Below, piece after piece: positions 1,464 to 57,926 of a DNA stretch of 64,000 bases; the stretch's first letter is position 1; each line of letters starts with the position of its first letter. Made by a program: the position numbers and the translations under genes. Source of the DNA: Chthoniobacterales bacterium (lineage in GTDB: Bacteria > Verrucomicrobiota > Verrucomicrobiia > Chthoniobacterales > UBA6821); the NCBI GenBank assembly GCA_049282095.1, contig JBAPTI010000031.1:11419-75418 (forward strand), read 5' to 3'. A model generated the notes under the pieces. It was given only the letters and a program-made list of their open reading frames with translations, was not told the DNA's origin and searched no databases.

Positions 1464-2225
1464 CTATTTCCGGAAGCCGGGGAGGATCTTGTTGAGTTCG
1501 TTTCCAAGTTGCTTGGCTCCCTGCTGCTGAAGTTGCTGGAGTCCCTGCTTGGCAAGGGCGTTGATACCCTCCTTCGCGGCGGCATTAATGAGGGGGGTGA
1601 TGATCTGCATGGCGACATCACGGGCCGAGATGCCCTTGCCGGCGGTGCCGATGTTCTGCAGGCGGATATCCGGGATGGAGATGGTCTGGTTGACTTTCTG
1701 GTCGAGGGCGCTGGCGGCAAGATGAACCTTCGTTCCCGAGATCACGACTTCCTTGATGACAAATTTCTTGGAGGAGGCTTCCTGGGGCGGTTTCTCCTCC
1801 TTGGTCTTGGAGGAGGATCCGGCGGACTGGATGTTCTGCATGAGTTTCCCGAGGTTGTTACCCGACGGAGTTCCGATCAGGGCGATCTCGGGGCCGCGGA
1901 TGATCACGGAATTCACGACGATCGGATCCTTGAGGAGCGTCTCCTTGTCGACGCTGACAGCGATGCTTCCGAGTTTCAGGGCGAAGGGACCCTTGTAGCC
2001 TTCGGGATTGCCGATCACGAAGCCGCTGAGTGCACCGCTTCCGGAGAATGGGGAGAGCCTTGCCGACGCCAACCGCACATCGGTCCTGGTGATGGTGGGG
2101 CCGACGGTCTCGACCGCCTTTTTGATCAGTGAGTTCAGCGAGAAGTAGAGATAGCCGATCGTCCCGATGAACAGGACAACGACCACGGCGACGAGGGAGA
2201 GGAGGATTTTTTTCATGGGATTCAA
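1464..2225 (-). CDS. Hypothetical membrane-anchored protein (N-terminal TM helix)
   Basis: 253-aa ORF with an N-terminal hydrophobic helix (ILLSLVAVVVVLFIGTIGYLYF). I do not recognise a family with confidence. Confidence 0.55.
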   Translation of the reverse strand: MNPMKKILLSLVAVVVVLFIGTIGYLYFSLNSLIKKAVETVGPTITRTDVRLASARLSPFSGSGALSGFVIGNPEGYKGPFALKLGSIAVSVDKETLLKDPIVVNSVIIRGPEIALIGTPSGNNLGKLMQNIQSAGSSSKTKEEKPPQEASSKKFVIKEVVISGTKVHLAASALDQKVNQTISIPDIRLQNIGTAGKGISARDVAMQIITPLINAAAKEGINALAKQGLQQLQQQGAKQLGNELNKILPGFRK

Positions 2226-2277
2226 TCAGCGCTTTTAGTGGATCTAGTAGAGGGGAGCTTTGGGATGGATGGCAAGG

Positions 2278-14542: not shown

Positions 14543-14829
14543 AGTGGTAAACCAAGATTCAACCCAGAAAAATCAGTTACGACCACGAAAAACACGAAAG
14601 ACACGAACTGTCAGATATTAAAACAACACGGGCAAATACCCGATCAGAAGAGATCATTCAGGCCCTCTTGTTTTAGTGCTTTTCGTGGTTTTCGCGGTTT
14701 ATTCCCATTTAGGAAAGGGATACGCCGGACAACCGAAAGCCACACGGGCGGGTGGCTGCGGAGAATTCCTTTGCGGGGAGAAAACAAGTGCTTAGGCTCT
14801 CGTTTCACCGATACACCCTTTTTGATCCC

Positions 14830-15303
14830 ATGACACTCTCCGAACGCATTGACCACGACCTCAAGGAAGCCATGAAAGCCCGCGATGCCGCCAAGCTCGG
14901 CACGCTTCGCATGGTGAAGAGCGCCTTCAAGTATGCGGCCATCGAGAAGAGCGGCGCCGACGCCGTCGTGGATGACGAGGTTGCCACCTACGTGCTGCGC
15001 AAGCAGATCAAGCAGCGGGAGGATGCGGCCGCCGGATTCGAGCAGGGAGGCCGTCCCGAGATGGCTGAAAAGGAGAAGGCCGAAATTGCCATTCTTGTTG
15101 CCTACCTCCCGGCGGCCCTTTCGACCGAGGAACTTGCCGCTATTGTCCGTGACGCGATTGCCGAAGTGGGAGCTTCCTTGGGAACACCAGAAGGTGTTGG
15201 CAAAGCCCAGATGGGAGCAGTCATGAAGGCCGCCCAGGCCAAGGCCGCCGGACGCGCCGATGGCAAGAGTCTCAGCGCAGAGGTTCAGAAGCAGCTTTCC
15301 TGA
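14830..15303 (+). CDS. GatB/YqeY domain protein
   Basis: MTLSERIDHDLKEAMKARD...LRMVKSA...REDAAAGFEQGGRPEMAEKEKAEIAIL is typical of the YqeY family. The start is set at ATG 14830. Confidence 0.8.
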   Translation: MTLSERIDHDLKEAMKARDAAKLGTLRMVKSAFKYAAIEKSGADAVVDDEVATYVLRKQIKQREDAAAGFEQGGRPEMAEKEKAEIAILVAYLPAALSTEELAAIVRDAIAEVGASLGTPEGVGKAQMGAVMKAAQAKAAGRADGKSLSAEVQKQLS

Positions 15304-15328
15304 TCCCGGGGGACTTTTCCCCTTCCTA

Positions 15329-15604
15329 GGGAAGCGCTGATTAAATCCCATGAAGGCCGCTGAAGAGCATTTGCTGATTTTTGAAGGCGCGAGTGCTGGG
15401 CGATACCCGCAGCGGTCTCGCCCGAGCGAGCAACGCGGCAAAAATCAACAAATGGTTTCAGCCCTGCGGGTTGCGGAGATAACAGGCCGGGGTTTGCGTT
15501 GGCTTGGCACTTACAGCCCGCTGCGGGGATGCTCGTGCCAAGCCGCCTTGCCCGCGGCCCATTCTTCCCGCAACGGCCTCTATGCGATTTAATCAGCGTT
15601 TCCC
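15329..15604 (+). mobile_element. MITE, full copy (276 bp), 19-nt TIRs, TA flanks
   Basis: Left TIR GGGAAGCGCTGATTAAATC and right TIR GATTTAATCAGCGTTTCCC. A TA sits at 15327-28 and at 15605-06. The element is near-identical to 27240-27516 and 52515-52790. Strand denotes an arbitrary element orientation. Confidence 0.85.
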
Positions 15605-15611
15605 TAACGAC

Positions 15612-16316
15612 ATGACCCGCTCAGCGCTTCCCGCTTCTGCCGCCGTGATCGTGGGCGGCGGGTCAGGTAACCGTTTCGGCGGGGATAAGCTCACGGTGTC
15701 GCTGGCCGGCAAGCCTTTGATTGCCCACACGCTCTCCGCCTTTGAAGGAACAGCCGCCGTTTCCGCAATCGTGCTGGTCGTTCCCCCCGGGAGGGAGGAA
15801 GAGTTCCGCACGATCGCGAGCATTGAGGGGATCTCGAAACTGACTTCCGTGATTCCCGGGGGGGAGCATCGCCATGAATCGGTTTGCCGCGGCCTGGAAG
15901 CGCTTCCGTCCGAGGTTGGACTCGTCGCGATCCATGACGCGGCGAGGCCCCTGATCACTCCTAATCTCATTACCCGCTGCCTTGAGACGGCGGCCAAGGA
16001 GGGGGCTTCCGCCTTGGCGGCTCCGGTGACCGACACCCTGCATCGGATCGATGCATTGGGATGCGCGGCCGGTACTGTCGATCGCACCACGCTCCGGGCA
16101 ATGCAAACTCCCCAAGTATTTTGTGCGGCAGAGATCAGAGATCTACTTGCCTCCGTGTCAGGTAAGCCTACCGATGAGGTCTCGGTCGCCATGACCGCAG
16201 GGAAGAAGGTTTCCTTGGTCGAGCATCACGAACCGAATCTCAAGCTCACCTGGCCCCATGACGTCGTCATGGCCGAGGCCCTGCTGCGTGACAGGAAAAG
16301 GCAAAATAAAAAATGA
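15612..16316 (+). CDS. ispD: 2-C-methyl-D-erythritol 4-phosphate cytidylyltransferase
   Basis: AAVIVGGGSGNRFGGDKL and IHDAARPL motifs. The ORF-track N-terminal extension lies inside the MITE and was trimmed to ATG 15612. Confidence 0.88.
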   Translation: MTRSALPASAAVIVGGGSGNRFGGDKLTVSLAGKPLIAHTLSAFEGTAAVSAIVLVVPPGREEEFRTIASIEGISKLTSVIPGGEHRHESVCRGLEALPSEVGLVAIHDAARPLITPNLITRCLETAAKEGASALAAPVTDTLHRIDALGCAAGTVDRTTLRAMQTPQVFCAAEIRDLLASVSGKPTDEVSVAMTAGKKVSLVEHHEPNLKLTWPHDVVMAEALLRDRKRQNKK

Positions 16317-21741: not shown

Positions 21742-21960
21742 ATGAATCTGCTTTAGGAAAGGGCGGGAAGGGGCGTTGTCCCCAAAATCTTATTGAATAG
21801 TTTCGTCAAGAGATTGGATTTTGGGCTATTCGCTATTCTGAATGTGCTTCCATGGGATTTCCACCACCGAGCCCTTTGTCCCGAGAGGGCGGACAGAGAG
21901 TGGAGTGAGATTTTGAATCAGAAAGCAGGAAGACAGGAGGGGAGAAGGCGGTCTTTTGAC

Positions 21961-22064
21961 CGGCCGGGGGCTGTTTAGGCTTGGCGCTTTGCTTGCCCGG
22001 TCGCTGCTTCGCATCCGCTACGGCTTTCCGCAACGGGCTCTATGCGATTTAATCAGCGGTTCCC
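21961..22064 (+). mobile_element. MITE fragment (one end only, module-containing subtype)
   Basis: It ends in CTCTATGCGATTTAATCAGCGGTTCCC and contains the GCTTGCCCGGTCGCTGCTTCGCATCCGCTACGG module also present in the 43899-44433 and 57698-57795 copies. Confidence 0.75.
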
Positions 22065-22146
22065 TTGGATTACTTCTTGCCAAGTGCTTTTGGGATGGGC
22101 ATTCTACCCGACCACCTGAGACCAATTTCCGGCAACAATTCCTGAC

Positions 22147-25620: not shown

Positions 25621-26534
25621 GCGGTTGCCTCTCTTCCTCGAGCTCTTGCTCGTGCTTTGCCTTCCGTGGTCGTTTTCCTTTTCTGCGGAAGGGGGAGGTT
25701 ACCGATGCGGGCCTGATGAAAGAGCCACTGCTGGATGTATCCCGCGTAGGGACCGAGCAGGCGCTCGCCGTATCGCTCAAGCTGCTCGGGCGTGGCCTTC
25801 TTTGATTTCGGGGAACGGAAGGAGGAGAGGATGCGCCCGATCCAGACATCGACGGGAACGGCCTCGAGTCGTTCGTAGGCGAAGAGCAGGATGCAGTTGG
25901 CTACCTTCCTGCCGATGCCCGGCAAGGTGCAGAGGGCGGCGCGGGCCTCGGCGGTTTCCATCCGCACCAGATCCGAGGGGTCGAATCTGCCCTCGGCGAT
26001 CATCCGTGCGGAACCCAGCAGTCCCTTGGCACGGAAACCAAGCCCGCACTTGCGGAGAGCCTCTTCCGAGGTTGAGGCGAGGGCCTCGGGCGAGGGGAAT
26101 GCCGGAATCGGAGTGTCGGCGAGCCATTGGCCGTAGTTCTTCCGCAGGGCGAGACTCATCTGCCTGATGTGGGCCACCTGCTTCATGGGGGAGAGAATGA
26201 AGCTGGCGAGGCACTCCCAGTGGGGCTGCCTCATGATGCGGAGTCCCCGGCATGCCATGGCGGCATCATGTACCACGGCATGACCGGCACAGGAACGACG
26301 GATCGCTTGAAGGTCGTGATCGAGGGCGAAGTAATGTCGGATTCCCTTCTCGCCGATCCCCCGGTAGTGGAGGAGCTTGCCTTGCTGGCGGACGAACAGG
26401 GATTCCGATCCGATGCATCCGGTATAGCCTTCCTCCAGCGGTGTCCAGTGGAAGGTCTGGCCGCTCTCCAGAGTCATCCGGAGATCGAACTCCGGGCACT
26501 CCATCACCCCCGTGGCGCCGGAATTCATCCTCAT
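25617..26534 (-). CDS. ogg: 8-oxoguanine DNA glycosylase (Ogg-type, HhH-GPD)
   Basis: N-terminal LESGQTFHW and the HhH-GPD region LCTLPGIGRKVANCILLFAY..LEAVPVDVW. ATGA overlaps occur at both ends (26531-34, 25617-20). Confidence 0.8.
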   Translation of the reverse strand: MRMNSGATGVMECPEFDLRMTLESGQTFHWTPLEEGYTGCIGSESLFVRQQGKLLHYRGIGEKGIRHYFALDHDLQAIRRSCAGHAVVHDAAMACRGLRIMRQPHWECLASFILSPMKQVAHIRQMSLALRKNYGQWLADTPIPAFPSPEALASTSEEALRKCGLGFRAKGLLGSARMIAEGRFDPSDLVRMETAEARAALCTLPGIGRKVANCILLFAYERLEAVPVDVWIGRILSSFRSPKSKKATPEQLERYGERLLGPYAGYIQQWLFHQARIGNLPLPQKRKTTTEGKARARARGREATA

Positions 26535-27238
26535 CGCGCGAAGTAGCTGAGATTCTCAAGCTCGATGGCGAGGTTGACGTTGTTCACGGCAACGGTCTCG
26601 GGCAACTGGAGGAGCGTGGGCGAGAAGTTGAGGAGGGCATGGATACCGCTTCCGACGAGATGTTCGGCAACCCGCTGGGCCTCCTCCCCTGGGACGCAGA
26701 GGATCGCCATGCGGATGTCATGCTGCCTGATGACCCTGCGCATCTCCTCCATCCGCTGGACTTCAATCCGACCCCTCTGTGCTTTTTTCGGCTTCTTGTC
26801 GAAGGCCGCGATGATCTCGAACCCCTCCTTGGCAAATCCCCTGTAGCTCAGGAGCGCCTGTCCGAGGTTACCGGCACCGACCAAAATGACAGGTTGGAGG
26901 CTCGCGCGCCCCAGAATTTCCTCAAGGCGGTTACGGAGCAGGATGACTTCGTAGCCGGTGCCGCGTTTCCCAAGCGGGCCGCAGCAGGCGAGATCCTTGC
27001 GAAGTTGGGCCGGTTGCACGCCGGCCACGCCGGCGAGAGCCGTTGAGGAGACGATGCTTGTGCGGTTGGCCACCATGAGGCCCAGGCATCGCAGATAGAG
27101 GGAGAGCCGGTAGACGGTCTTCTTGGGAATCTCCCCGGCGGAATGGGCCTGTCGCTCATGATGCCTGACCCGCGGTACGTGTTCCTGCCGGGGGGATTTC
27201 CCGGTCACCTTGAGTGAACGATGGCCTTCGCGGCTCAT
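26531..27238 (-). CDS. rex: Redox-sensing transcriptional repressor Rex
   Basis: wHTH (IPKKTVYRLSLYLRCL) plus Rossmann VILVGAGNLGQALL. The start ATG 27236-38 is supported by the reconstructed ATGA overlap with miaB. The ORF-track N-terminal extension lies in the MITE. Confidence 0.85.
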   Translation of the reverse strand: MSREGHRSLKVTGKSPRQEHVPRVRHHERQAHSAGEIPKKTVYRLSLYLRCLGLMVANRTSIVSSTALAGVAGVQPAQLRKDLACCGPLGKRGTGYEVILLRNRLEEILGRASLQPVILVGAGNLGQALLSYRGFAKEGFEIIAAFDKKPKKAQRGRIEVQRMEEMRRVIRQHDIRMAILCVPGEEAQRVAEHLVGSGIHALLNFSPTLLQLPETVAVNNVNLAIELENLSYFAR

Positions 27239-27239
27239 A

Positions 27240-27516
27240 GGGAAGCACTGATTAAATCGCATAGAGGCCGTTGCGGGAAGAATGGGCCGTGGGCAAGGCG
27301 GCTTGGCGCGAGCATCCCCGCAGTGGGCTGTAAGCGCCAAGGCAACAAAGCCCCCCGGCCGGTTATCTCCGCAACCCGGAGGGCTGAAGCCATTTGTCGA
27401 TTTTTGTGGCGTTGCTCGCTCGGGCGAGACCGCTGCGGGTATCGCCCAGCACTCGCGCCTTCAAAAATCAGCAAATGCTCTTCAGCGGCCTTCATGGGAT
27501 TTCATCAGCGCTTCCC
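27240..27516 (-). mobile_element. MITE, full copy (277 bp), TA flanks, inserted at the miaB/rex junction
   Basis: TIRs GGGAAGCACTGATTAAATC and GATTTCATCAGCGCTTCCC. A TA sits at 27238-39 and at 27517-18. The interior is collinear with 15329-15604 in reverse orientation. Confidence 0.88.
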
Positions 27517-28944
27517 TAAGGTCTCCGATCCCTCTCCCAGTATGGCGGGATCACCATAGAGGGTGGAGGCGCTGGCGGAGGTGATCTCGACATCGAAGAT
27601 CTGACCATGGAAGCGGCTCCCTCCCTCCAAGATCACGATCTTGTTGGTGCGGGTGCGACCGGCCAGTCGGGAGGGGTCGTTCCTGCTCGGGCCCTCGCAG
27701 AGGATTTGCTGCCTGGTGCCGACGCATGCCTCGAGGTGGCGTGAGGCGGAGGCGTTCACCACCGCGAGGAGGTCCTGATTGCGGAACTCCTTCACCTCTT
27801 CGGAAAGCTGTCCGTCCATCACGGCGGCGGGTGTGTCGCCGCGCTTGGAGTAGCGGAAGACAAAGGCACCGTCGAAGCCGATCTCCTCGGCAAGGTCGCG
27901 GGTGGCCCTGTAATCCTCATCCGTTTCGCCCGGGAAGCCGACGATGATGTCGGTGCTGACTGCGATGCCGGGGCGGGCAGCCCGGAGATCCGCCACCAGC
28001 TTTCGGAAAGAGGCTGCCGTGTAGGGACGGTGCATGGCCTTGAGGATCCGGTCGCTGCCAGACTGGAGGGGAAGGTGGACATGCTCCATGAGTTTCGGAA
28101 GCCGCGCGAAGCACTCCACGAGATCCTTGCGGAATCCCATCGGATGGGGGGAGGTGAAGCGGATGCGTTCGATTCCCTCGACGGCGTTGAGCGCCTCCAG
28201 GAGTTGCACGAAGGGGCTCTTGCCATCCACCTTGGGGAATTCGTGGCGTCCGTAGAGATTGACGATCTGGCCGAGCAGCGTCACCTCCTTGATCCCTCTG
28301 CCGGCGAGGGTGCGGGCTTCCTCGACGATTTCTGCGATCGGTCGGCCGCGCTCGGGTCCGCGCGTCGTCGGGACAATGCAGAAGGTGCAGTGCATGTTGC
28401 ATCCCTGCATGATTGAGATGAACGCGGTGGCGGCCTTTTTCTCGGTGGGGAGATGCTCGCGGATGGTGTTCTGCGATCCCTCCTCGGCGGCGATGTCGAC
28501 GATCGGGGCCATTGGGGCCATTGGGGCGATCTGATTGATGCTTCCCCCCAGTTCGGTTGCATCCTCGGCGGCAAAGGCCTCTTCACGACGGCGGAGCGCC
28601 TCTTCCACATGGTCGGCGACACGGTGAAACTTCTGGGTCCCCACCACGAGATCGACATGGGGTGAGCGGTTCCCCAGATCATCCCCCAGGCGCTGCGCCA
28701 TGCATCCCATGTAGCCCAGGACGAGCTTCGGCTTCTCCCGGCGGAGCTTGCGGAGCATGCCCATCTTCCCGATCGCTTTCTGCTCGGCCATGTCGCGGAC
28801 GCTGCACGTGTTGAGCAGGATCACGTCGGCATCCCGCTCGTTGTCAACGAGACGGTGACCGCGGTCCTGAAGATCGCGCGCCACCTGTTCGGAGTCGCGC
28901 TCGTTCATCTGGCAACCGTAGGTCTTGATGAAGACGCTGGGCAT
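27505..28944 (-). CDS. miaB: tRNA-i6A37 methylthiotransferase MiaB
   Basis: MTTase N-domain (FIKTYGCQMNERDSE), radical-SAM GCNMHCTFCIVP and a TRAM domain. The last 3 codons plus the stop (GKR*) are encoded by the MITE TIR. The start is set at ATG 28944. Confidence 0.9.
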   Translation of the reverse strand: MPSVFIKTYGCQMNERDSEQVARDLQDRGHRLVDNERDADVILLNTCSVRDMAEQKAIGKMGMLRKLRREKPKLVLGYMGCMAQRLGDDLGNRSPHVDLVVGTQKFHRVADHVEEALRRREEAFAAEDATELGGSINQIAPMAPMAPIVDIAAEEGSQNTIREHLPTEKKAATAFISIMQGCNMHCTFCIVPTTRGPERGRPIAEIVEEARTLAGRGIKEVTLLGQIVNLYGRHEFPKVDGKSPFVQLLEALNAVEGIERIRFTSPHPMGFRKDLVECFARLPKLMEHVHLPLQSGSDRILKAMHRPYTAASFRKLVADLRAARPGIAVSTDIIVGFPGETDEDYRATRDLAEEIGFDGAFVFRYSKRGDTPAAVMDGQLSEEVKEFRNQDLLAVVNASASRHLEACVGTRQQILCEGPSRNDPSRLAGRTRTNKIVILEGGSRFHGQIFDVEITSASASTLYGDPAILGEGSETLGKR

Positions 28945-42355: not shown

Positions 42356-43129
42356 ATGGACTCATCCAACACATCCACCCAGCTCCGGGCGGGCTTTTTC
42401 GTCCTGCTCGGCCTGCTCTGCATCGGCTCGCTTGTCCTCTACTTCGGGCGATTCGGGGAGAGCGTGAAGAAATACTACACGCTCACCGTCGAGTACCATA
42501 ATGCCAGCGGCCTTCTCAAGGGGGCAGACGTCATGCTCGCCGGCGCCAAGATCGGCGAGGTTGCCGCACCCCCCAAGGTGCTTCCCAACATGCGGGGCGT
42601 CGCCGTGTCGCTCAGGATCGACGAGACGGTGCAGATCCCGGAGGGAAGCATCTTCTCCATCGGCAGCTCGGGTCTCCTGGGTGACCGCTTCGTCACGGTG
42701 ACCATGGTAGGTGACGCCGCGGAACTCAAGCCGATCGCGCACGGTTCCGTGATCCCCAACGGGCGCAGTGAGTCCAGCATTTCCGAACTCCAGCGCCAGC
42801 TCCATGACGAGATCCTCCCCAAGCTCGGTGACGCCCTCGATAATATCGATTCGGTGAGCCAGACCCTGCGCAAGGATGTCTTCAACAAACAGGGGGTGGA
42901 GAACCTTCAGACAACGCTGGGAAACCTTGCCGCCGCATCAAGCGAGTTCAAGACCGCCGCCGGAAATGCCGGATCCTTCCTCAAGAAGGGGAATGTCGCG
43001 ATGGATTCCCTTCAGGGATCTGCCGTCGATCTGAAGGCCTTCATCGCCAACCTCAAGCAGCACGGGATCATCTTCTACCGCGACACCGCACCCCAGCAAC
43101 CCGCCGGCCCCGTTAAGAAGAAGCCGTAG
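42356..43129 (+). CDS. mlaD: MCE-domain protein (MlaD-like)
   Basis: N-terminal TM helix plus an MCE domain (YYTLTVEYHNASGLLKGADVMLAGAKIGEV), in position after mlaEF. Confidence 0.8.
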   Translation: MDSSNTSTQLRAGFFVLLGLLCIGSLVLYFGRFGESVKKYYTLTVEYHNASGLLKGADVMLAGAKIGEVAAPPKVLPNMRGVAVSLRIDETVQIPEGSIFSIGSSGLLGDRFVTVTMVGDAAELKPIAHGSVIPNGRSESSISELQRQLHDEILPKLGDALDNIDSVSQTLRKDVFNKQGVENLQTTLGNLAAASSEFKTAAGNAGSFLKKGNVAMDSLQGSAVDLKAFIANLKQHGIIFYRDTAPQQPAGPVKKKP

Positions 43130-43139
43130 GGGAAGGCGA

Positions 43140-43333
43140 AAGGCGAACCAAGTCGCTGGGAAGCGGCGCGGAAGACTGTGAGTGCAGCGAACAGCCCTGA
43201 AAGGCGGCACTGCTTGCCGGGAGGCAAGTGCCGTCAAAGGCGAACCAAGTCGCTGGGAAGCGGCGCGGAAGACTGTGAGAGCAGCGAACAGCCCTGAAAG
43301 GGCGCCACGGCTAGCCGGGAGGCAACTGGCGTG
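43140..43333. repeat. Tandem direct repeat, 2 x 97 bp
   Basis: The units start at 43140 and 43237. The first ~66 nt are identical except for one position, and the last ~30 nt diverge. Each unit ends in a GGGA-looped hairpin. Confidence 0.85.
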
Positions 43334-43815: not shown

Positions 43816-43898
43816 GGGTTGAACGTAATCCATACTTCCGATTCCGCCATCGAAAAGATTCGTGAATCGCGGGGATTCTCCGACAGGGAAGATCCTTA

Positions 43899-44433
43899 AA
43901 GCGCTGATTAAATCGCATAGAGGCCGTTGCGGGAAGCCGTAGCGGATGCGAAGCAACGACCGGGCAAGCCATGGGCCGCGGGCAAGGCGGCTTCGCGGGC
44001 GCATCCCCGCAGTGGGCTGCCGTAACGGATGCGAAGCAACGGCCGGGCAAGCAAAGCGCCAAGCCAACACAGTTGGCCCCCGTGCCACGCCACGAAGCCA
44101 AAGGCTTTGTGGCCCCCGGCTGGTTATCTCCGCAACCCGGAGGGCTGAAGCCAGTTGTCGATTTTTGCCTCGCCGTCTCCCGACGGTCTCGTCCTCCGGA
44201 CTGCTTCGCAGGCTACGACGCGGCTCCCGCCGCTCGTCGTTGCGGCGATGCTCGCTCGGGCGAGACCGCTGGGGGTATTGACTCGCTCGCTCCCGCTCGG
44301 CTCGCCCTGACGGGTTTGCCTCCGGCAAATCTACCCAAGCCGCACCCGCAGCTACGTGTTGCCCAGCACTCGCGCCTTCAAAAATCAGCAAATGCTCTTC
44401 AGCGGCCTTCATGGGATTTAATCAGCGTTTCCC
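43899..44433 (-). mobile_element. MITE, mosaic long copy (~535 bp) with at least 5 internal insert modules
   Basis: It shares both ends and the backbone with the 276-bp copies. It carries two direct copies of the 33-nt module CCGTARCGGATGCGAAGCAACGRCCGGGCAAGC plus other inserts. The left TIR lacks the terminal GGG. Confidence 0.8.
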
Positions 44434-44474
44434 TTGGCAGCGCGATGCCCATGATGCATATTCTTTTTCTCCGC

Positions 44475-44559
44475 GCCGGCGTGGCGGAATTGGCAGACGC
44501 GCCGGACTCAAAATCCGGTATCCTCTAAAGATGTGTCGGTTCGAACCCGACCGCCGGTA
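44475..44559 (+). tRNA. tRNA-Leu (anticodon CAA), class II with long variable arm
   Basis: 7-bp acceptor stem GCCGGCG/CGCCGGT (one G-U pair), D-arm GCGGAATTGGCAGACGC, anticodon stem-loop CCGGA-CTCAAAA-TCCGG, a 16-nt variable region, T-arm GTCGG-TTCGAAC-CCGAC and discriminator A. No CCA is encoded. Confidence 0.9.
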
Positions 44560-44768
44560 TTTCTCAGAGACTGTCTGAAAAGTCGGGAGAGCCGAGTTGG
44601 CGGGGATTTTTCCGTTGCCTCAGGAGGGAGGATGGCCGCAATGATCCAGATGAACGCACTCTCTTGAATAGAGAAGAGGGATTGACCAGTTGCCTGATCA
44701 ATCCCTCTGGGGAGAAACTCTTAAAACGAACTCGGGCCTACGGGCCTGATTTCCCTAGGGGCTAAGGG

Positions 44769-50151: not shown

Positions 50152-52515
50152 ATGAATTCCCCAGTTCCCATGACTCCTGCCGCGAATCATCCTGCCCCGG
50201 GGCATGGCCATCACGCCCATGCGGGCGGATTTGACTGGCGGGAGTATTACTTTGCGCTGAAGGCCCGTGCATGGATCGTCATTGCGTGCGTGATCCTTGC
50301 GACGCTCTGGGGAGTCTTCTCTGCGGCGACCCAGCAGGGACTCTACACCGCGCGCTGCGTCCTCTTCATCGAACAGGTCAAGAGCCGGGTGCTCAACACC
50401 AAGGTGGAGGATGTCCGCGATGACCAGATCAAGTCGATCGACATGATCAACACCCTCGTCGACCTCCTCCGCAGCTATCCCTTCGCGCTTCGTGTGGTCA
50501 ACCACCTCCAGCTTGCCCGCGACCGCGAGTTTCTGGCCGCGGTCGGACTTTCCGGGAAAGAGACATCCCCGGAACGCGCCGCCGGCGCCCTTGCGAGGAT
50601 GGTCAGCCCCAGCTACCGGCTCAACACCCGCCTCATCGACATCAACCTCACCACCCGGAACCCCTCCCTCTCCGTCAAGCTGGCCAATGCCTACGCCGAG
50701 GAATATCTCCGCTACATCCATGACCAGAGGGCCGAGGCCACCCGTTCCGCCAGCACCTTCCTCATGGAAGAGTCCGACAGGTTGCGCAAGAAGATGAAGG
50801 CATCCGAAGAGGGGATGCAGAACTTCCGCGAGCGCGAGCGTGCGGCATCCATGGAGTCGATGCTGCTCGAGGCGCAGAACCAGCTCACCCAGCTCTCCGC
50901 CCGCCAGAGCGCCATCCAGTCCAAGCTCACCCAGATCAACAGTGACCTCGAGATCGCCCGCGCGAACAAGGGGAAGACCGAGGAACTCCTCCGCCTTCCC
51001 AGCGTCGCCGGAGAGCCCAAGGTTGCCGCGCTGGTCGCCCAGCAGTCGAGCCTGGACAAGCAGTTCATCCTCATCCAGCAACGCTACCGCGCCAAGCACC
51101 CCGCCTACATCAACATCAAGACCCAGCTCGACCTCGGCAAGTCCGAGCTGGACAAGGTGCTCAACGACATCGTCGGCCTTCTCGATTCCATCCGCAGCAG
51201 CCTGCTGGCCCAGCAGGCCGCCGCCAATGCCGAGCGCGAGAGCGCCGAGAAGCGCCTGCTCGAGGTCACCAGCAAGTCCATCGAGTACAACGACCTCAAG
51301 CGCGAGTTGGAGAGCGACACCGCCCTCTACGGCGCCGTCATTGGACGCATCAAGGAAGTCGATGTCACCAAGGAACTCTCCGAATCCCCCGTCGTGATCC
51401 AGGAAAAGGCGAGCGGAGCCTTCCCTGTCAGCAAGCCCCCCCTCAAGATCCTCCTCCAGGCCATGCTATCCGGATTGGCCGTGGGTGTCGGCATCGTCCT
51501 TGCCCTGCACAAGCTTGATACCAGCACCAAGAGCGTCGATCAGCTCGAGCAGCTCACCGGTATCGACGTCGCCGCGGCCATCCCGCAGATCGGCGGCAAT
51601 GCCGCCGCCCGCTTCGGCATCTTCACCAAGGAACAGCAGCAGCAACTGCTCGGATCCTGGAAATCGGCCAAGACCATGATCCTTGACGCATCGGTGCCTC
51701 CGCGTGCGCGACTCTCGCGGATCCACGAGATCCTCAGTCCAGCCATCGCCATGATCGCCCACCCCCACATCTCCACCGTGCTTCCGCGCGGCGGCGAGTT
51801 GGTGGTGAAACAGGACCGCAGCGGCGTCGTGGCGGAAGCCTTCCGCTCGCTTCGCGCCAGTGTGGCCATGAACGCCCGCGTCGAGAGCCAGCGCTCCTTC
51901 CTCCTGACCAGCGCCATCCCGTCGGAGGGCAAGTCCTTCTGCACCTCCAACTTCGCCGTCACCCTCGCACAGCAGGGACTCAGGACTCTCCTCATCGATG
52001 CCGATCTCCGCAAGCCCACCATCTCCGGCATCTTCTTCGGGATGAACCGCAAGCCCGGACTCACCGAAGTCCTGATCGGATCGGCCTCATTGACGGATGC
52101 CGTGCACTCCTCGGGCGTCGAGGGACTCTCGATCCTCACCGCCGGGGGGCGCTCCTCCAATCCCTCCGAACTACTGGCCGGAAAGCCCTTCCGTGATTTC
52201 ATGGTCGAGGCCCTCAGGCAGTATGACCGCGTCGTCATTGATTCCGCCCCCATCCTGGCTGTGAGCGACACGCTGCTTCTCGCCCCCTCCGTCGATGTCG
52301 TCTGCCTCGTAGTCCGCGCCTTCATGACCCCGCGCAAGATGATCCAGCGGGCTCTCAAGTCGCTTCAGGATATCCATGTGAAGCCCGCCGGACTTGTCTT
52401 CAACTGCATCCCTGCCGGCAGCGAGGCCTATTCCTACTCCGGCAAGTATTACGGCTCCTACGGCAGCAAAGGAGTGTATGGAAGTCCGGTTGAAGGGGAA
52501 AAAGCCGAAGGTTAA
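50152..52515 (+). CDS. Polysaccharide co-polymerase / BY-type tyrosine autokinase (Wzc/GumC-like)
   Basis: N-terminal Wzz-type TM and coiled-coil periplasmic domain. The C-terminal kinase has Walker A SAIPSEGKS, Walker B VVIDSAP and a Tyr-rich tail (YSYSGKYYGSYGSKGVYG). Confidence 0.88.
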   Translation: MNSPVPMTPAANHPAPGHGHHAHAGGFDWREYYFALKARAWIVIACVILATLWGVFSAATQQGLYTARCVLFIEQVKSRVLNTKVEDVRDDQIKSIDMINTLVDLLRSYPFALRVVNHLQLARDREFLAAVGLSGKETSPERAAGALARMVSPSYRLNTRLIDINLTTRNPSLSVKLANAYAEEYLRYIHDQRAEATRSASTFLMEESDRLRKKMKASEEGMQNFRERERAASMESMLLEAQNQLTQLSARQSAIQSKLTQINSDLEIARANKGKTEELLRLPSVAGEPKVAALVAQQSSLDKQFILIQQRYRAKHPAYINIKTQLDLGKSELDKVLNDIVGLLDSIRSSLLAQQAAANAERESAEKRLLEVTSKSIEYNDLKRELESDTALYGAVIGRIKEVDVTKELSESPVVIQEKASGAFPVSKPPLKILLQAMLSGLAVGVGIVLALHKLDTSTKSVDQLEQLTGIDVAAAIPQIGGNAAARFGIFTKEQQQQLLGSWKSAKTMILDASVPPRARLSRIHEILSPAIAMIAHPHISTVLPRGGELVVKQDRSGVVAEAFRSLRASVAMNARVESQRSFLLTSAIPSEGKSFCTSNFAVTLAQQGLRTLLIDADLRKPTISGIFFGMNRKPGLTEVLIGSASLTDAVHSSGVEGLSILTAGGRSSNPSELLAGKPFRDFMVEALRQYDRVVIDSAPILAVSDTLLLAPSVDVVCLVVRAFMTPRKMIQRALKSLQDIHVKPAGLVFNCIPAGSEAYSYSGKYYGSYGSKGVYGSPVEGEKAEG

Positions 52516-52790
52516 GGAAGCGCTGATTAAATCGCATAGAGGCCGTTGCGGGAAGAACTGGCCGCGGGCAAGGCGGCTTGGCACGAGCATCCCCGCAGCG
52601 GGCTGTAAGTGCCAAGCCAACGCAGCCCCCGGCCTGTTATCTCCGCAACCCGCAGGGCTGACGTCATTTGTCGATTTTTGCGGCGTTGCTTGCTAGGGCG
52701 AGACCACTGCGGGTATCGCCCAGCGCTCGCGCCTTCAAAAATCAGCAAATGCTCTTCAGCGGCCTTCATGGGATTTAATCAGCGTTTCCT
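52515..52790 (-). mobile_element. MITE, full copy (276 bp), TA flanks
   Basis: TIRs AGGAAGCGCTGATTAAATC and GATTTAATCAGCGTTTCCT. A TA sits at 52513-14 and at 52791-92. The first element base completes the TAA stop of the Wzc-like gene. Confidence 0.88.
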
Positions 52791-52847
52791 TAAGGAACCG
52801 CAGTTCCCTGCTCTCACTTTCTCCTTGGTTCTTTCTTCCCCTTCAGG

Positions 52848-52885
52848 GTTTTAGCCTTTAGCCTTCGGCCTTTAAACCTTTCCCC
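52848..52885 (+). repeat. Period-7 leader array GTTTTAG CCTTTAG CCTTCGG CCTTTAA ACCTTTC CCC directly abutting the uxs ATG
   Basis: Read directly from the sequence. The same GTTTTAG-initiated array type occurs at 54625, 56319 and 57816. Confidence 0.75.
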
Positions 52886-53821
52886 ATGCGTATCCTCATC
52901 ACCGGCGGAGCCGGATTCCTAGGTTCCCACCTCTGTGACCGCCTCATCGAGCAGGGTCACGACATCATCTGCCTCGACAACTTCTTCACCGGTCGCAAGG
53001 CCAACATTCAGCATCTCGTCGGCAATCCCCACTTCGAACTCGTCCGTCACGACGTGATCGACCCGTTCAAGTTCGAGGTCGATCGCATCTACAACCTCGC
53101 CTGCCCCGCTTCCCCTCCTCACTACCAGTACAACCCTATCAAGACCATGAAGACCTCCGTGGTGGGGGCCATCAACTGCCTCGGCCTCGCCAAGAGGGTC
53201 AAGGCACGCGTCTTCCAAGCCTCCACCTCCGAGGTTTACGGGGATCCCAACGTCCATCCCCAGCCCGAGGCCTACTGGGGCCATGTGAACCCCATCGGAC
53301 TACGCTCCTGCTACGACGAGGGGAAGCGCGCGGCCGAGACCCTCTTCTTCGACTATCACCGCGAGAACGGGGTCGACATCCGCGTCATCCGCATCTTCAA
53401 CACCTACGGCCCCCGCATGCTCCCCGACGACGGACGCGTCGTCTCCAACTTCATCGTCCAGGCACTTCAGGGCAAGGACCTCACCGTCTACGGAGAGGGC
53501 TCCCAGACACGCTCCTTCTGCTATGTCGACGACCTCGTCGACGGCTTCATGCGCTTCATGGAGCAGGAGAAGATCGTCGGCCCCATGAACCTCGGTAACC
53601 CCGGCGAGTTCACCATGCTCCAGCTCGCCGAACTCGTCCTCAAGAAGGTAGGCGGCAAGAGCAAGATCACCCACCTCCCGCTTCCTTCCGACGATCCGAA
53701 GCAGCGCCGTCCCGACATCACCCTCGCCAAGGAAACCCTCGGCTGGGAACCGAAAGTCCCTCTCGAAGCCGGCATTGAGAAGACCATCGCGTATTTCAGC
53801 GAAGCGCTTAAGAAAGGCTAA
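52886..53821 (+). CDS. uxs: UDP-glucuronate decarboxylase (UDP-xylose synthase)
   Basis: SDR with [14 protein letters not shown], the catalytic YDEGKR motif, and UXS-like sequence along its full length. Confidence 0.9.
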
Positions 53822-53910
53822 AGGCGAAAGGCTAAAGGCTAAAGGCTAAAGGCTAAAGGCTAAAGGCTAAAGGCTAAAGGCTAAAGGCTAAAGGCGAAAG
53901 GCGAAAGGAT
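53813..53910 (+). repeat. Heptanucleotide tandem array, 14 units (AAAGGCT x10, AAAGGCG x3, AAAGGAT x1)
   Basis: Units were counted from 53813 in steps of 7. The array starts in the last codons of uxs and contains its TAA stop (53819-21). Confidence 0.95.
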
Positions 53911-54113
53911 GGAACCAACGGGCGTTCCAAGTCTCTTGGAAGAGATGAGGAGAAATTTCCGTAGGCAAGCCCGTGAGGGCGGCACGGTTTTGCGAGTTCA
54001 AAGTGCCGTTCAACCGAGCGGGAGCTATCGAGTGCAAAACATGCGCGGAAGAGCCCGCGAAGCGGGGCCCGGAGTTCGGGTTGAAAGGCTCTCTTAAAAA
54101 AACGCCGTCTGCA

Positions 54114-57048: not shown

Positions 57049-57381
57049 ATGGTATTTATTGAATTCCCCGCTTTTACCAAGACCATCACCAAACTGCCTG
57101 ATGAAGACTATGCCACCTTTCAGCATGAACTCCTCGTTGACCCAGAAATGGGCGATCTCATCCGTGGCACGGGTGGATTTCGCAAAGCTCGAATGGCCTT
57201 TCCAAGCGTGGGAATCGGTAAGAGCGGAGGAGCTCGCGTCATCTACCTCCATATCAAAGAACTACAGACCATCATCCTGGTAACACTCTATGCAAAATCA
57301 AAAAAATCAGACCTCAGTCGCGCGGAAGAAAACGAACTCCGTTTCCTCGCTGCGCAAATCCGCAGCACTCTCGGTGCTTGA
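57049..57381 (+). CDS. RelE/HigB-2-like toxin
   Basis: 110-aa ORF with F..F.K....L.....F...L...P..G.LI.GTGG.RK.R and GKSGGARVIY motifs typical of HigB-2-type toxins. The gene order is toxin first. Confidence 0.7.
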   Translation: MVFIEFPAFTKTITKLPDEDYATFQHELLVDPEMGDLIRGTGGFRKARMAFPSVGIGKSGGARVIYLHIKELQTIILVTLYAKSKKSDLSRAEENELRFLAAQIRSTLGA

Positions 57382-57682
57382 TGGATTGGAGTCATTCAGT
57401 GGTGCTAGCCTGATTGAGGCGACACAGGAGGGGGTCGCAGCTCTTAAGGCAAAAAAAACACTGCGAACCAGTAAGATCGCTCCCCCTGTCACTCTTGATC
57501 CCCGGCAGATCGCCGAAATCCGTTCCTCGCTGAATGCCAGCCAAGGGGTTTTTGCCTCCTACCTCGGTGTCAGCAAAGCGGCGGTCGTGGCTTGGGAATA
57601 CGGAGTACGTCAGCCCTCAGGAGCGGCCTTGAAGCTCCTGTCGATTGCCCGTAAGAACCCCAGCGTCCTAGTCGCCTCCTGA
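57374..57682 (+). CDS. XRE-family HTH antitoxin (HigA-2-like)
   Basis: The HTH IRSSLNASQGVFASYLGVSKAAVVAWEYGVRQPSGAALKLLSIARKNP is typical of the family. The start is assumed at GTG 57374, overlapping the toxin stop, but TTG 57386 is also possible. Confidence 0.65.
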   Translation: MLDGLESFSGASLIEATQEGVAALKAKKTLRTSKIAPPVTLDPRQIAEIRSSLNASQGVFASYLGVSKAAVVAWEYGVRQPSGAALKLLSIARKNPSVLVAS

Positions 57683-57697: not shown

Positions 57698-57795
57698 GGG
57701 AGCCGCTGATTAAATCGCATGGAAGCCGTTGCGGGAAGCTGTAACGGATGCGAAGCAACGGCCGGGCAAGCCATGGACCGCATCCCTGCGGCTTG
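57698..57795 (-). mobile_element. MITE fragment (one end, module-containing subtype)
   Basis: GGGAGCCGCTGATTAAATCGCATGGAAGCCGTTGCGGGAAG followed by the CTGTAACGGATGCGAAGCAACGGCCGGGCAAGC module. The other end is absent. Confidence 0.75.
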
Positions 57796-57926
57796 GTGCT
57801 CGACTCGGTTTCCCCGTTTTAGCCTTAAGCCTTTAAACTTTAGCCTTTCGCTTTTGACGGCACTTGCAGGGAGGATCTAAAGAGATTCCAATTGATGGTT
57901 TACTTTAGGGCGATATAAATAAAGCG

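Follow-up and report, generated by a model that had tools for sequence, protein, structure and literature searches.

Miniature inverted-repeat transposable elements (MITEs) are usually treated as neutral clutter or as promoter donors. Among the described ones, those derived from IS5, such as BrickBuilt of Porphyromonas gingivalis and ATR of Neisseria, resemble a repeat that we analysed in a 64,000-nt stretch of a Chthoniobacterales genome (Verrucomicrobiota; contig JBAPTI010000031.1, positions 11,419 to 75,418; hereafter, the window): they too are short, intergenic, transposase-less and bounded by terminal inverted repeats (TIRs). BrickBuilt lies 49-591 nt from genes and has a minisatellite, whereas the window element approaches a start codon to within 2 nt and has an open reading frame (ORF) that runs from TIR to TIR. 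The Correia elements of Neisseria (CREE/NEMIS) are likewise TIR-bearing MITEs, often co-transcribed with their neighbours and folding as long hairpins. However, they duplicate TA where the window element duplicates a 4-bp YTAR, and they carry outward promoter boxes, whereas our scans found no outward consensus promoter in the window element.

Two other kinds of repeat are comparable in their position or their coding capacity. The ERIC/IRU repeats of enterobacteria and Yersinia are small palindromic repeats in the transcribed intergenic regions of operons and have orientation-dependent effects on the flanking mRNAs; they differ from the window element in sequence and target site, and we know of no ORF-based mechanism described for them. 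The Rickettsia palindromic elements (RPEs) are mobile palindromic repeats with a length and frame compatible with translation. RPEs are inserted in frame into host genes and contribute to host proteins, whereas the window element has an intergenic position and its product would be a disposable peptide of its own. To our knowledge, a TIR-to-TIR relay ORF that is kept open by frame-preserving modules is undescribed for bacterial MITEs.

The window allows the states before and after insertion to be compared cleanly: a 4-nt overlap of miaB and rex was split by one insertion, and another, 8 nt from the essential isoprenoid gene ispD, has been kept across species-level divergence. From the window and 185 related loci we conclude with high confidence, for the following points taken jointly, that the element is a YTAR-targeting MITE of IS5 type excluded from coding sequence, that ispD and rex are operon-internal, that the other genes keep native upstream DNA, and that the element has an orientation bias restricted to the surroundings of start codons. 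As an explanation of the whole we lean, with distinctly less assurance, towards a tolerated MITE that would be read through by transcription, lies co-directional with genes near their starts, and has an ORF possibly relaying translation. Should a translational relay underlie the orientation rule and the frame-preserving ORF, this would be a simple way for a transposon to inhabit operons without polar effects; if only tolerance and target choice are at work, the repeat is an ordinary new MITE family.

Identity of the element and its family

The family was sampled in two sets. Scanning species-representative genomes with the TIR pattern yielded 99 loci from about ten Verrucomicrobiota metagenome-assembled genomes (MAGs) labelled Spartobacteria/Chthoniobacterales (hereafter, the discovery set); many of these contigs end at the repeat, and the MAGs are fragmented there. 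A single metagenome scan yielded another 86 loci (the replication set), from which the sides with flanks matching the discovery set were removed. Flanks were de-duplicated throughout, and individual loci are cited below by their L numbers. The window and the discovery loci together hold 204 element ends and 73 complete copies, and the replication loci hold 53 complete copies.

The core element measures 274 bp; the modal copy length was 276 bp by our first boundary definition and is 274 bp without the duplicated base. The imperfect TIRs of about 35 bp start with GGAAGCGCTGATTAAATC and read GGAAGCGCTGATTAAATC(C/G)CAT… at either end, and we refer to the ATGCG end as E1 and to the ATGGG end as E2. 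The 17-mer ATGCGATTTAATCAGCG, allowing ≤3 mismatches, occurs 11 times in the window against 0.08 expected, and BLAST of one copy against the window recovered six copies, of which three are full, one is a long variant and two are partial (Table 1).

On both sides of GGAAG…CTTCC, the flanks are predominantly CTAG, CTAA, TTAG and TTAA. Identical 4-mers flank 37 of 70 copies, compared with 11 expected by permutation (maximum 21), and the outer positions of the 4-bp duplication agree in 52/70 and 55/70 copies. The same YTAR target duplication is made by IS5 (PMC5009759). The GGAAG termini are also those of IS5: the E. coli IS5 end, which begins GGAAGGTGCG and reads GGAAGGTGCGAATAAG beside its transposase gene, is matched in the first 5 nt and in 10/16 nt, so that the TIR likeness beyond the first 5 nt is modest. 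Because of the 4-bp YTAR duplication and the IS5-like termini, we assign the element to the IS5-type MITEs and not to the TA-duplicating Correia/IS630 type. This replaces both the Correia-type affinity raised in the original prediction, which had been made from the window alone, and our own initial reading of three copies as having a TA duplication of IS630-Correia type, which was overturned by the 70-copy analysis.

That the repeat is a MITE, as first proposed, is borne out by the TIRs, by the many short transposase-less copies, and by the target duplication together with empty sites in relatives at rex (L102/L103), ispD (L191-L193), rplS (L151) and uxs (L188). Judged by its sequence, it is a non-autonomous IS5-type MITE family of freshwater Chthoniobacterales/'Spartobacteria' Verrucomicrobiota. 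The family is previously undescribed and belongs to the well-known class of IS5-derived MITEs; our literature search returned no described verrucomicrobial MITE and no coupling MITE. Searches of Pfam and Rfam gave no match to the element, and the ORF product had no Pfam match even at E≤1. A known RNA family was rejected, as tRNA-Leu was the sole window feature above the Rfam thresholds.

Among the loci examined, no autonomous partner sharing these TIRs came to light. The solo TIRs in L030, L079 and L099 were considered for this role and lead into ordinary genes or unrelated sequence. L079 also encodes (1194-2537) a 447-aa DDE transposase (Pfam DDE_Tnp_1_4, 5.8e-43) on a contig where MITE fragments are abundant; the last codons of this gene contain the beginning of a MITE-type TIR, and the gene is not shown to encode the mobilising enzyme. 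Derived forms of the element include 56-bp mini-elements that consist of two TIRs alone with YTAR-like flanks (L022 517-572; L168), and nested insertions in which one copy sits within the TTAA of another copy's TIR (GCTGA-TTAA-ATC; L004 3047-3062 and L084 3639-4070).

Insertion sites and orientation

We recorded the nearest gene on each side of every element. Within 300 nt, sides in the discovery set face 58 5' ends and 66 3' ends. Compared with a null of 927 non-coding YTAR sites, 48% of which face 5' ends, this set shows no overall enrichment beside 5' ends. Insertions do avoid coding sequence. YTAR sites outside elements number 608 in coding sequence, 820 in intergenic sequence and 107 at stop codons, and among the 50 elements with both flanks resolved 38 are intergenic, 9 lie on a stop codon and 3 fall within the very last part of a gene. 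About 3 insertions are thus seen at the 608 coding sites and 47 at the 927 non-coding ones. An enrichment at stop codons (a TAA or TAG belonging to YTAR) beyond target availability was considered and is not significant (19% observed vs 11.5% expected, p=0.11).

The genomes are gene-dense with ~59% G+C, and their non-coding YTAR sites are stop codons and short boundary spacers. Every surviving copy touches a gene end because the targets outside coding sequence are of these two kinds and coding insertions are nearly absent; with no 5' excess and with coding sequence avoided, such contact is what target choice and purifying selection predict. The original prediction that every copy abuts the 5' end of a gene does not hold in the window itself, where copy F (which it had missed) faces a 3' end and the E1 end of copy D lies directly on the stop codon of a Wzz-like gene (TAA 52513-52515). 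Of the two properties for which it suggested a wider test, enrichment at 5' ends is not found, whereas a bias in orientation is.

The two ends of the element differ in what they face. In the discovery set, E1 faces 41 5' ends and 23 3' ends, and E2 faces 18 and 42, respectively (Fisher p=1.7e-4). Between tandem gene pairs of this set, 20 copies are co-directional with the genes (E2 upstream, E1 downstream) and 5 are reversed. A start codon lies within 29 nt of 16 E1 ends and of no E2 end (25% vs 0%; null 10.9% each), and beyond 60 nt there is no bias (E1:E2 16:15). The metagenome loci were used for replication because these tests had been devised after inspecting the discovery data. With both sets combined, the odds ratio is 3.3 (p=7e-5), the tandem count is 29:8 (p=8e-4), and the numbers of E1 and E2 ends that face a start are 18:1 within 29 nt, 34:8 within 60 nt and 35:26 beyond; the strongest statistics stem from the set where the hypotheses arose. 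The orientation rule is real and of moderate strength. The earlier remark that the same end lies upstream of several start codons thus survives as a preference for E1, though a weaker one in the replication set.

One related signal was dropped. An outward ATG in the E1 TIR, in frame with the downstream gene, was present in 22/41 cases in the discovery set (p=0.006) and in 8/30 in the replication set; the window has examples in which MRFNQRFP- is joined to IspD and Rex.

Heptamer arrays accompany some of the copies. An AAAGGCT array of ~12 units follows uxs (53799-53929), near MITE copies, and related TTTAGCC/TAGGCTG arrays stand beside several copies, at 52850-52872 and 57808-57847 in the window and in the flanks of L082, L089 and L130. 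As runs of CTAA/TTAG, these arrays are dense in YTAR targets and may be insertion hot spots.

Proposed transcription and translation across the element

Relatives without the element reveal the junctions as they were before insertion. The yqeY-ispD spacer measures 29, 37 and 27 nt in relatives at 88%, 74% and 71% identity (L191-L193), and 30 nt in the window when the element is removed in silico. The ispD insertion is common to L035, L188 and L180, genomes at ~87-92% identity, and is therefore old and tolerated. At the second junction, in relatives at 79%, 83% and 97% protein identity (L100-L103), the end of miaB and the start codon of rex form a 4-nt overlap, ATGA (…GTATGAGCC…), with no element between the genes. 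The window element occupies exactly this overlap, and through the target duplication the rex ATG is re-formed 2 nt past the E1 terminus. To judge from these comparisons, ispD and rex are operon-internal and had no junction promoter of their own before insertion; on the simplest reading, both would still be transcribed from upstream through the element.

The 80-95 nt adjoining rplS and uxs are conserved in relatives without copies E and D (L151 and L188), and promoter-like sequences lie outside the element upstream of rplS and of tRNA-Leu (Table 1). By this evidence, rplS, uxs and tRNA-Leu keep their native upstream DNA. The rhodanese start is supported by orthologue alignments; L034, considered as an empty site for copy C, has an extra gene in the neighbourhood and is uninformative beyond supporting this start. 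With ispD and rex operon-internal in relatives and native upstream regions elsewhere, none of the six genes would require a promoter in the element. For rex and ispD it had been argued that any promoter must lie inside the element, which does not follow, as both are operon-internal in the element-free relatives.

The strongest alternative, which we nevertheless regard as unlikely, is promoter donation, whereby E1, or the element read from E2 to E1, drives the adjacent gene and only E1-facing insertions survive near starts. The orientation bias itself would fit, and IS5-type elements alter the expression of neighbouring genes (PMC4596501, PMC2753651, PMC11894529): the IS5-type MITE BrickBuilt has promoter activity (PMC4596501), and the IS5 transposase promoter, reading through the element, drives fucAO (PMC11894529). 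Against this, consensus scans for promoters and terminators found none in any copy on either strand, and no site reached the scan threshold, in agreement with the earlier failure to find a convincing -35/-10 pair by eye. The best outward matches of a permissive scan were TTCCCG-17-TTTAAT at E1 (8/12) and TGCTCT-18-TTTAAT at E2 (7/12), slightly favouring E1. TTTAAT, previously named as the best -10-like hexamer, is thus part of the best outward match, but neither this hexamer nor an inward TGATTAAAT can explain why the two ends behave differently, each being shared by both of them. The lack of a junction promoter at ispD and rex before insertion is also at odds with promoter donation. Finally, the discovery set has 14 copies in which E1 comes within 60 nt of a start codon and the opposite flank is known, and in every one of them a co-directional gene precedes the element (0 divergent vs 30% expected, p=0.007); this point did not replicate (3/9 divergent), and the absence of start-proximal E1 ends from divergent contexts is retained only as weak evidence.

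The TIRs differ most clearly in their inward sequence, E2 continuing as …AAATCCCATGAAGG and E1 as …AAATCGCATAGAGG. The TIR-to-TIR ORF is confined to the strand read from E2 to E1. It runs from the ATG in the E2 TIR to a TAA within the E1 TIR (GATTTAATC), 11 nt from the terminus, and is intact from TIR to TIR in 41/70 copies. In copy A, the yqeY stop (15301-15303) is followed by 46 nt, the ATG, 80 codons, the TAA, 19 nt and the ispD ATG. In copy B, which belongs to the +1 subfamily, the ORF exits the element, and its TGA (27235-27237) overlaps the rex ATG (27236-27238) as ATGA, recreating the junction once supplied by miaB.

The recurrent internal modules of 33, 39 (6+29+4), 75, 81 and 87/99 bp are all multiples of 3, and the probability that 5-7 recurrent modules would be so by chance is 4e-3 to 5e-4; private indels are mostly 1-8 bp and frame-breaking. 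The 33-bp module has two insertion sites, and its reading frame differs between them. In long variants (423-603 bp, up to 189 codons), the frame of the E2 ATG alone is stop-free, and the other five have 1-7 stops each. In the discovery set, the ORF traverses the element in 19/19 copies with E1 within 60 nt of a start, compared with 35/50 others (p=0.007), and in the combined sets in 27/31 compared with 49/78 (p=0.02). A conserved protein or transposase relic was considered for the ORF and rejected, with no codon-position signal and no Pfam match.

The modules of 33, 39, 75, 81, 87 and 99 bp are, moreover, odd multiples of 3, each able to form its own hairpin, and the overall appearance is of hairpin units stacked onto a TIR core.

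The predicted RNA fold is Y-shaped, at -150 and -157 kcal/mol in the two orientations (z -9 to -10), with the TIRs paired as a basal stem and both ATGs inside that stem. On the explanation that we favour, the element would be transcribed through as part of the operon and, near a start codon, would be tolerated only when co-directional. Ribosomes leaving the upstream gene, or loading at the E2-TIR ATG, would translate across this very stable structure, a hairpin-rich insertion of ~275-600 nt, terminate just before the downstream start or on it (as in the ATGA overlap at rex), and pass to the downstream cistron. Such a relay would preserve translational coupling and avoid polarity, and would let the element colonise coupled junctions such as miaB/rex; in the opposite orientation, the structured and untranslated element would mask a start within ~30 nt. 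The relay step itself, in which translation from the E2-TIR ATG would open the TIR stem and bring ribosomes to the next start, we put forward tentatively. More doubtful still is that the MITE evolved, or was filtered, for operon compatibility by means of a disposable relay ORF of which openness alone would be maintained. The frame-preserved TIR-to-TIR ORF is the part of this work most worth an experiment.

The stability of the fold might also act without translation. In such an RNA effect, the anti-orientation would terminate transcription, recruit Rho or be cleaved by RNase III or RNase E, and the co-orientation would be neutral or stabilising. ERIC/IRU repeats are documented to act differently in their two orientations and Correia elements to be processed by RNase III, the predicted structure is very stable in both orientations, and in the anti-orientation a U-rich stretch (UUUGUCGAUUUUUG), read by eye, lies ~14 nt past the first long hairpin. 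We nonetheless consider this improbable, for no copy has a terminator-like site on either strand, and G and C are equally frequent in the element (84 each), leaving no C-rich, rut-like strand bias; a strand-specific G/C skew as a cue for Rho was sought and is absent. An RNA effect would also leave unexplained the multiples of 3 and the single stop-free frame, just as promoter donation leaves the frame-preserving modules unexplained.

Several observations weigh against a co-directional, read-through MITE with a relaying ORF. Gene calls, made with the elements masked, come from a home-made hexamer caller that had the analysed DNA as its training set, and the sampled genomes, being related, are only partly independent. 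All orientation tests keep their direction when confined to the replication set, but none reaches significance by itself (odds ratio 2.0, p=0.18; 9:3 for tandem pairs; 11:5 within 60 nt), and the same holds for the traversal of the element by the ORF (8/12 vs 14/28). Variability at codon positions 1, 2 and 3 is 0.071, 0.052 and 0.066; with no third-position excess the peptide is not conserved, as would suit a relay ORF and just as well a frame that codes for nothing. The 276-bp form also has one open antisense frame, two open frames of six not being rare at 61% G+C, and some copies with a start-proximal E1 have premature stops or no ATG (L141, L190, L162 and L128). In L155 (1771-2047) and L141 (1881-2438), both of the replication set, the element lies between divergent genes (including bioA in L141), with 18 and 9 nt and with 8 and 33 nt to the start codons, respectively, in inferred original spacers of ~23 and ~37 nt. 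Because the genes diverge, read-through from an upstream co-directional gene cannot explain these two cases; transcription must start in or cross the element, and they might be instances of promoter donation with no other source of transcription.

Least probable is an element with no function, the bias arising from insertion mechanics, shared ancestry or gene-calling artefacts and the ORF being a chance frame in G+C-rich DNA: the replication set not being significant on its own, the open antisense frame, the fragility of post-hoc signals exemplified by the outward ATG (22/41 falling to 8/30) and the recent rex insertion, absent from the relative at 97% identity, would all suit it, but the bias is confined within 60 nt (34:8) and absent beyond (35:26), unlike a global mechanistic or replication-linked one, and the de-duplicated flanks, the retention of the ispD insertion across genomes at ~87-92% identity and the low chance probability of recurrent modules that are all multiples of 3 speak against it.

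Copies and genes of the window

The copies, their reading frames and the adjoining genes are listed in Table 1.

Table 1. MITE copies, adjoining genes and other features of the 64-kb window (positions are those of the window).
Feature	Position	Strand	Remarks
Copy A, full, 274 bp	15330..15603	+	E2 left, E1 right; co-directional with yqeY and ispD
Copy A flanks	15326-15329, 15604-15607		CTAG and CTAA; target duplications
ORF of copy A, 80 codons	15350..15592	+	ATG in E2 TIR, TAA in E1 TIR
Copy B, full, 275 bp, +1 variant	27241..27515	-	E1 left facing rex, E2 right facing miaB
Copy B flanks	27237-27240, 27516-27519		ATAG and CTAA
ORF of copy B, 86 codons	27235..27495	-	ATG (27495) 9 nt past the new miaB stop
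Copy C, long variant, ~536 bp	~43897..44432	-	E1 facing rhodanese (ATG 43815), E2 facing tRNA-Leu
Copy D, full, 274 bp	52516..52789	-	perfect TTAA duplication, 52512-52515 and 52790-52793
Copy E, partial, E1 end only	21959..22063	+	83 nt upstream of rplS ATG 22147 (82 by the earlier count)
Copy F, partial, E1 end only	57699..57781	-	E1 faces the 3' end of gene 57290..57682, 16 nt past its stop (57680-57682)
Solo E2-type TIR remnant (AAAAGCGCTGATTGAATCCC + ATG)	2214..2237	-	its ATG is the start codon of DUF748 gene 1464..2216
yqeY-like gene	14752..15303	+	upstream of copy A; conserved yqeY-ispD-peptidase M16 operon
ispD	15612..16316	+	Pfam IspD 8.6e-52; ATG 8 nt past the element end (…TTCC)
rex	26531..27238	-	MSR… start conserved across orthologues
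miaB	27505..28944	-	last three codons and stop (GKR*; TGA 27505-27507) from the E2 TIR
Promoter-like TTGCCA-17-CATTCT upstream of rplS	22077..22105	+	outside the element, conserved in L151; read by eye, below scan threshold
Promoter-like TTGGCA-17-CATATT	44434..44462	+	between copy C and tRNA-Leu, outside the element
tRNA-Leu	44475-44559		supported by ARAGORN and Rfam

Pfam supports the gene names IspD, Rex, L19, rhodanese, UXS-like epimerase, MiaB, YqeY and Wzz-like kinase. Copy B is co-directional with miaB and rex, all on the minus strand, and copy C contains modules of 81, 75, 39 and 33 bp. From the E2 end of copy D to the uxs ATG (52886) there are 96 nt (95 nt by the earlier count). The distances first reported (ispD 7, rex 1, rplS 82, rhodanese ~80-83, tRNA-Leu 41 and uxs 95 nt) are, by direct reading, right to within 3 nt.

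The element also matters for annotation, in that gene callers extend ispD and rex into it or call the 80-aa ORF a protein. Upstream of their starts, the ispD and rex frames meet no stop codon for a long way into the element (15504-15611 and 27239-27340; LALTA.CGDARAKPPCPRPILPATASMRFNQ.FP-), so automatic annotation can over-extend both genes. One database IspD homologue has 248 aa, ~10-14 aa beyond most close homologues (233-238 aa).

Besides the remnant at the DUF748 gene, solo E2-type TIRs whose internal ATG starts an ordinary gene are found at nth in L004 (3047-3084) and at an acyltransferase-like gene in L028 (~1228), and another of this sort lies in L092 (~3183). At the corresponding place, the nth gene of the window (ATG 2934) carries a 20-nt leader that is unrelated, and for this reason the fusion of TIR and ATG in L004 looks like a later replacement, perhaps by a deletion between the ATGA of the TIR and the ATGA of the gene.

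Two further features lie on either side of copy C. Two 66-nt direct repeats, 98% identical and 97 nt apart (43139-43204 and 43236-43301), lie in the spacer that separates gene 42356..43129 from the rhodanese 3' end. Just past tRNA-Leu, on the minus strand, a 15-bp near-perfect hairpin (AGAGGGATTGATCAG…CTGGTCAATCCCTCT) with a T-rich tail (44675-44708) is the strongest terminator-like site of the scan that covered it.

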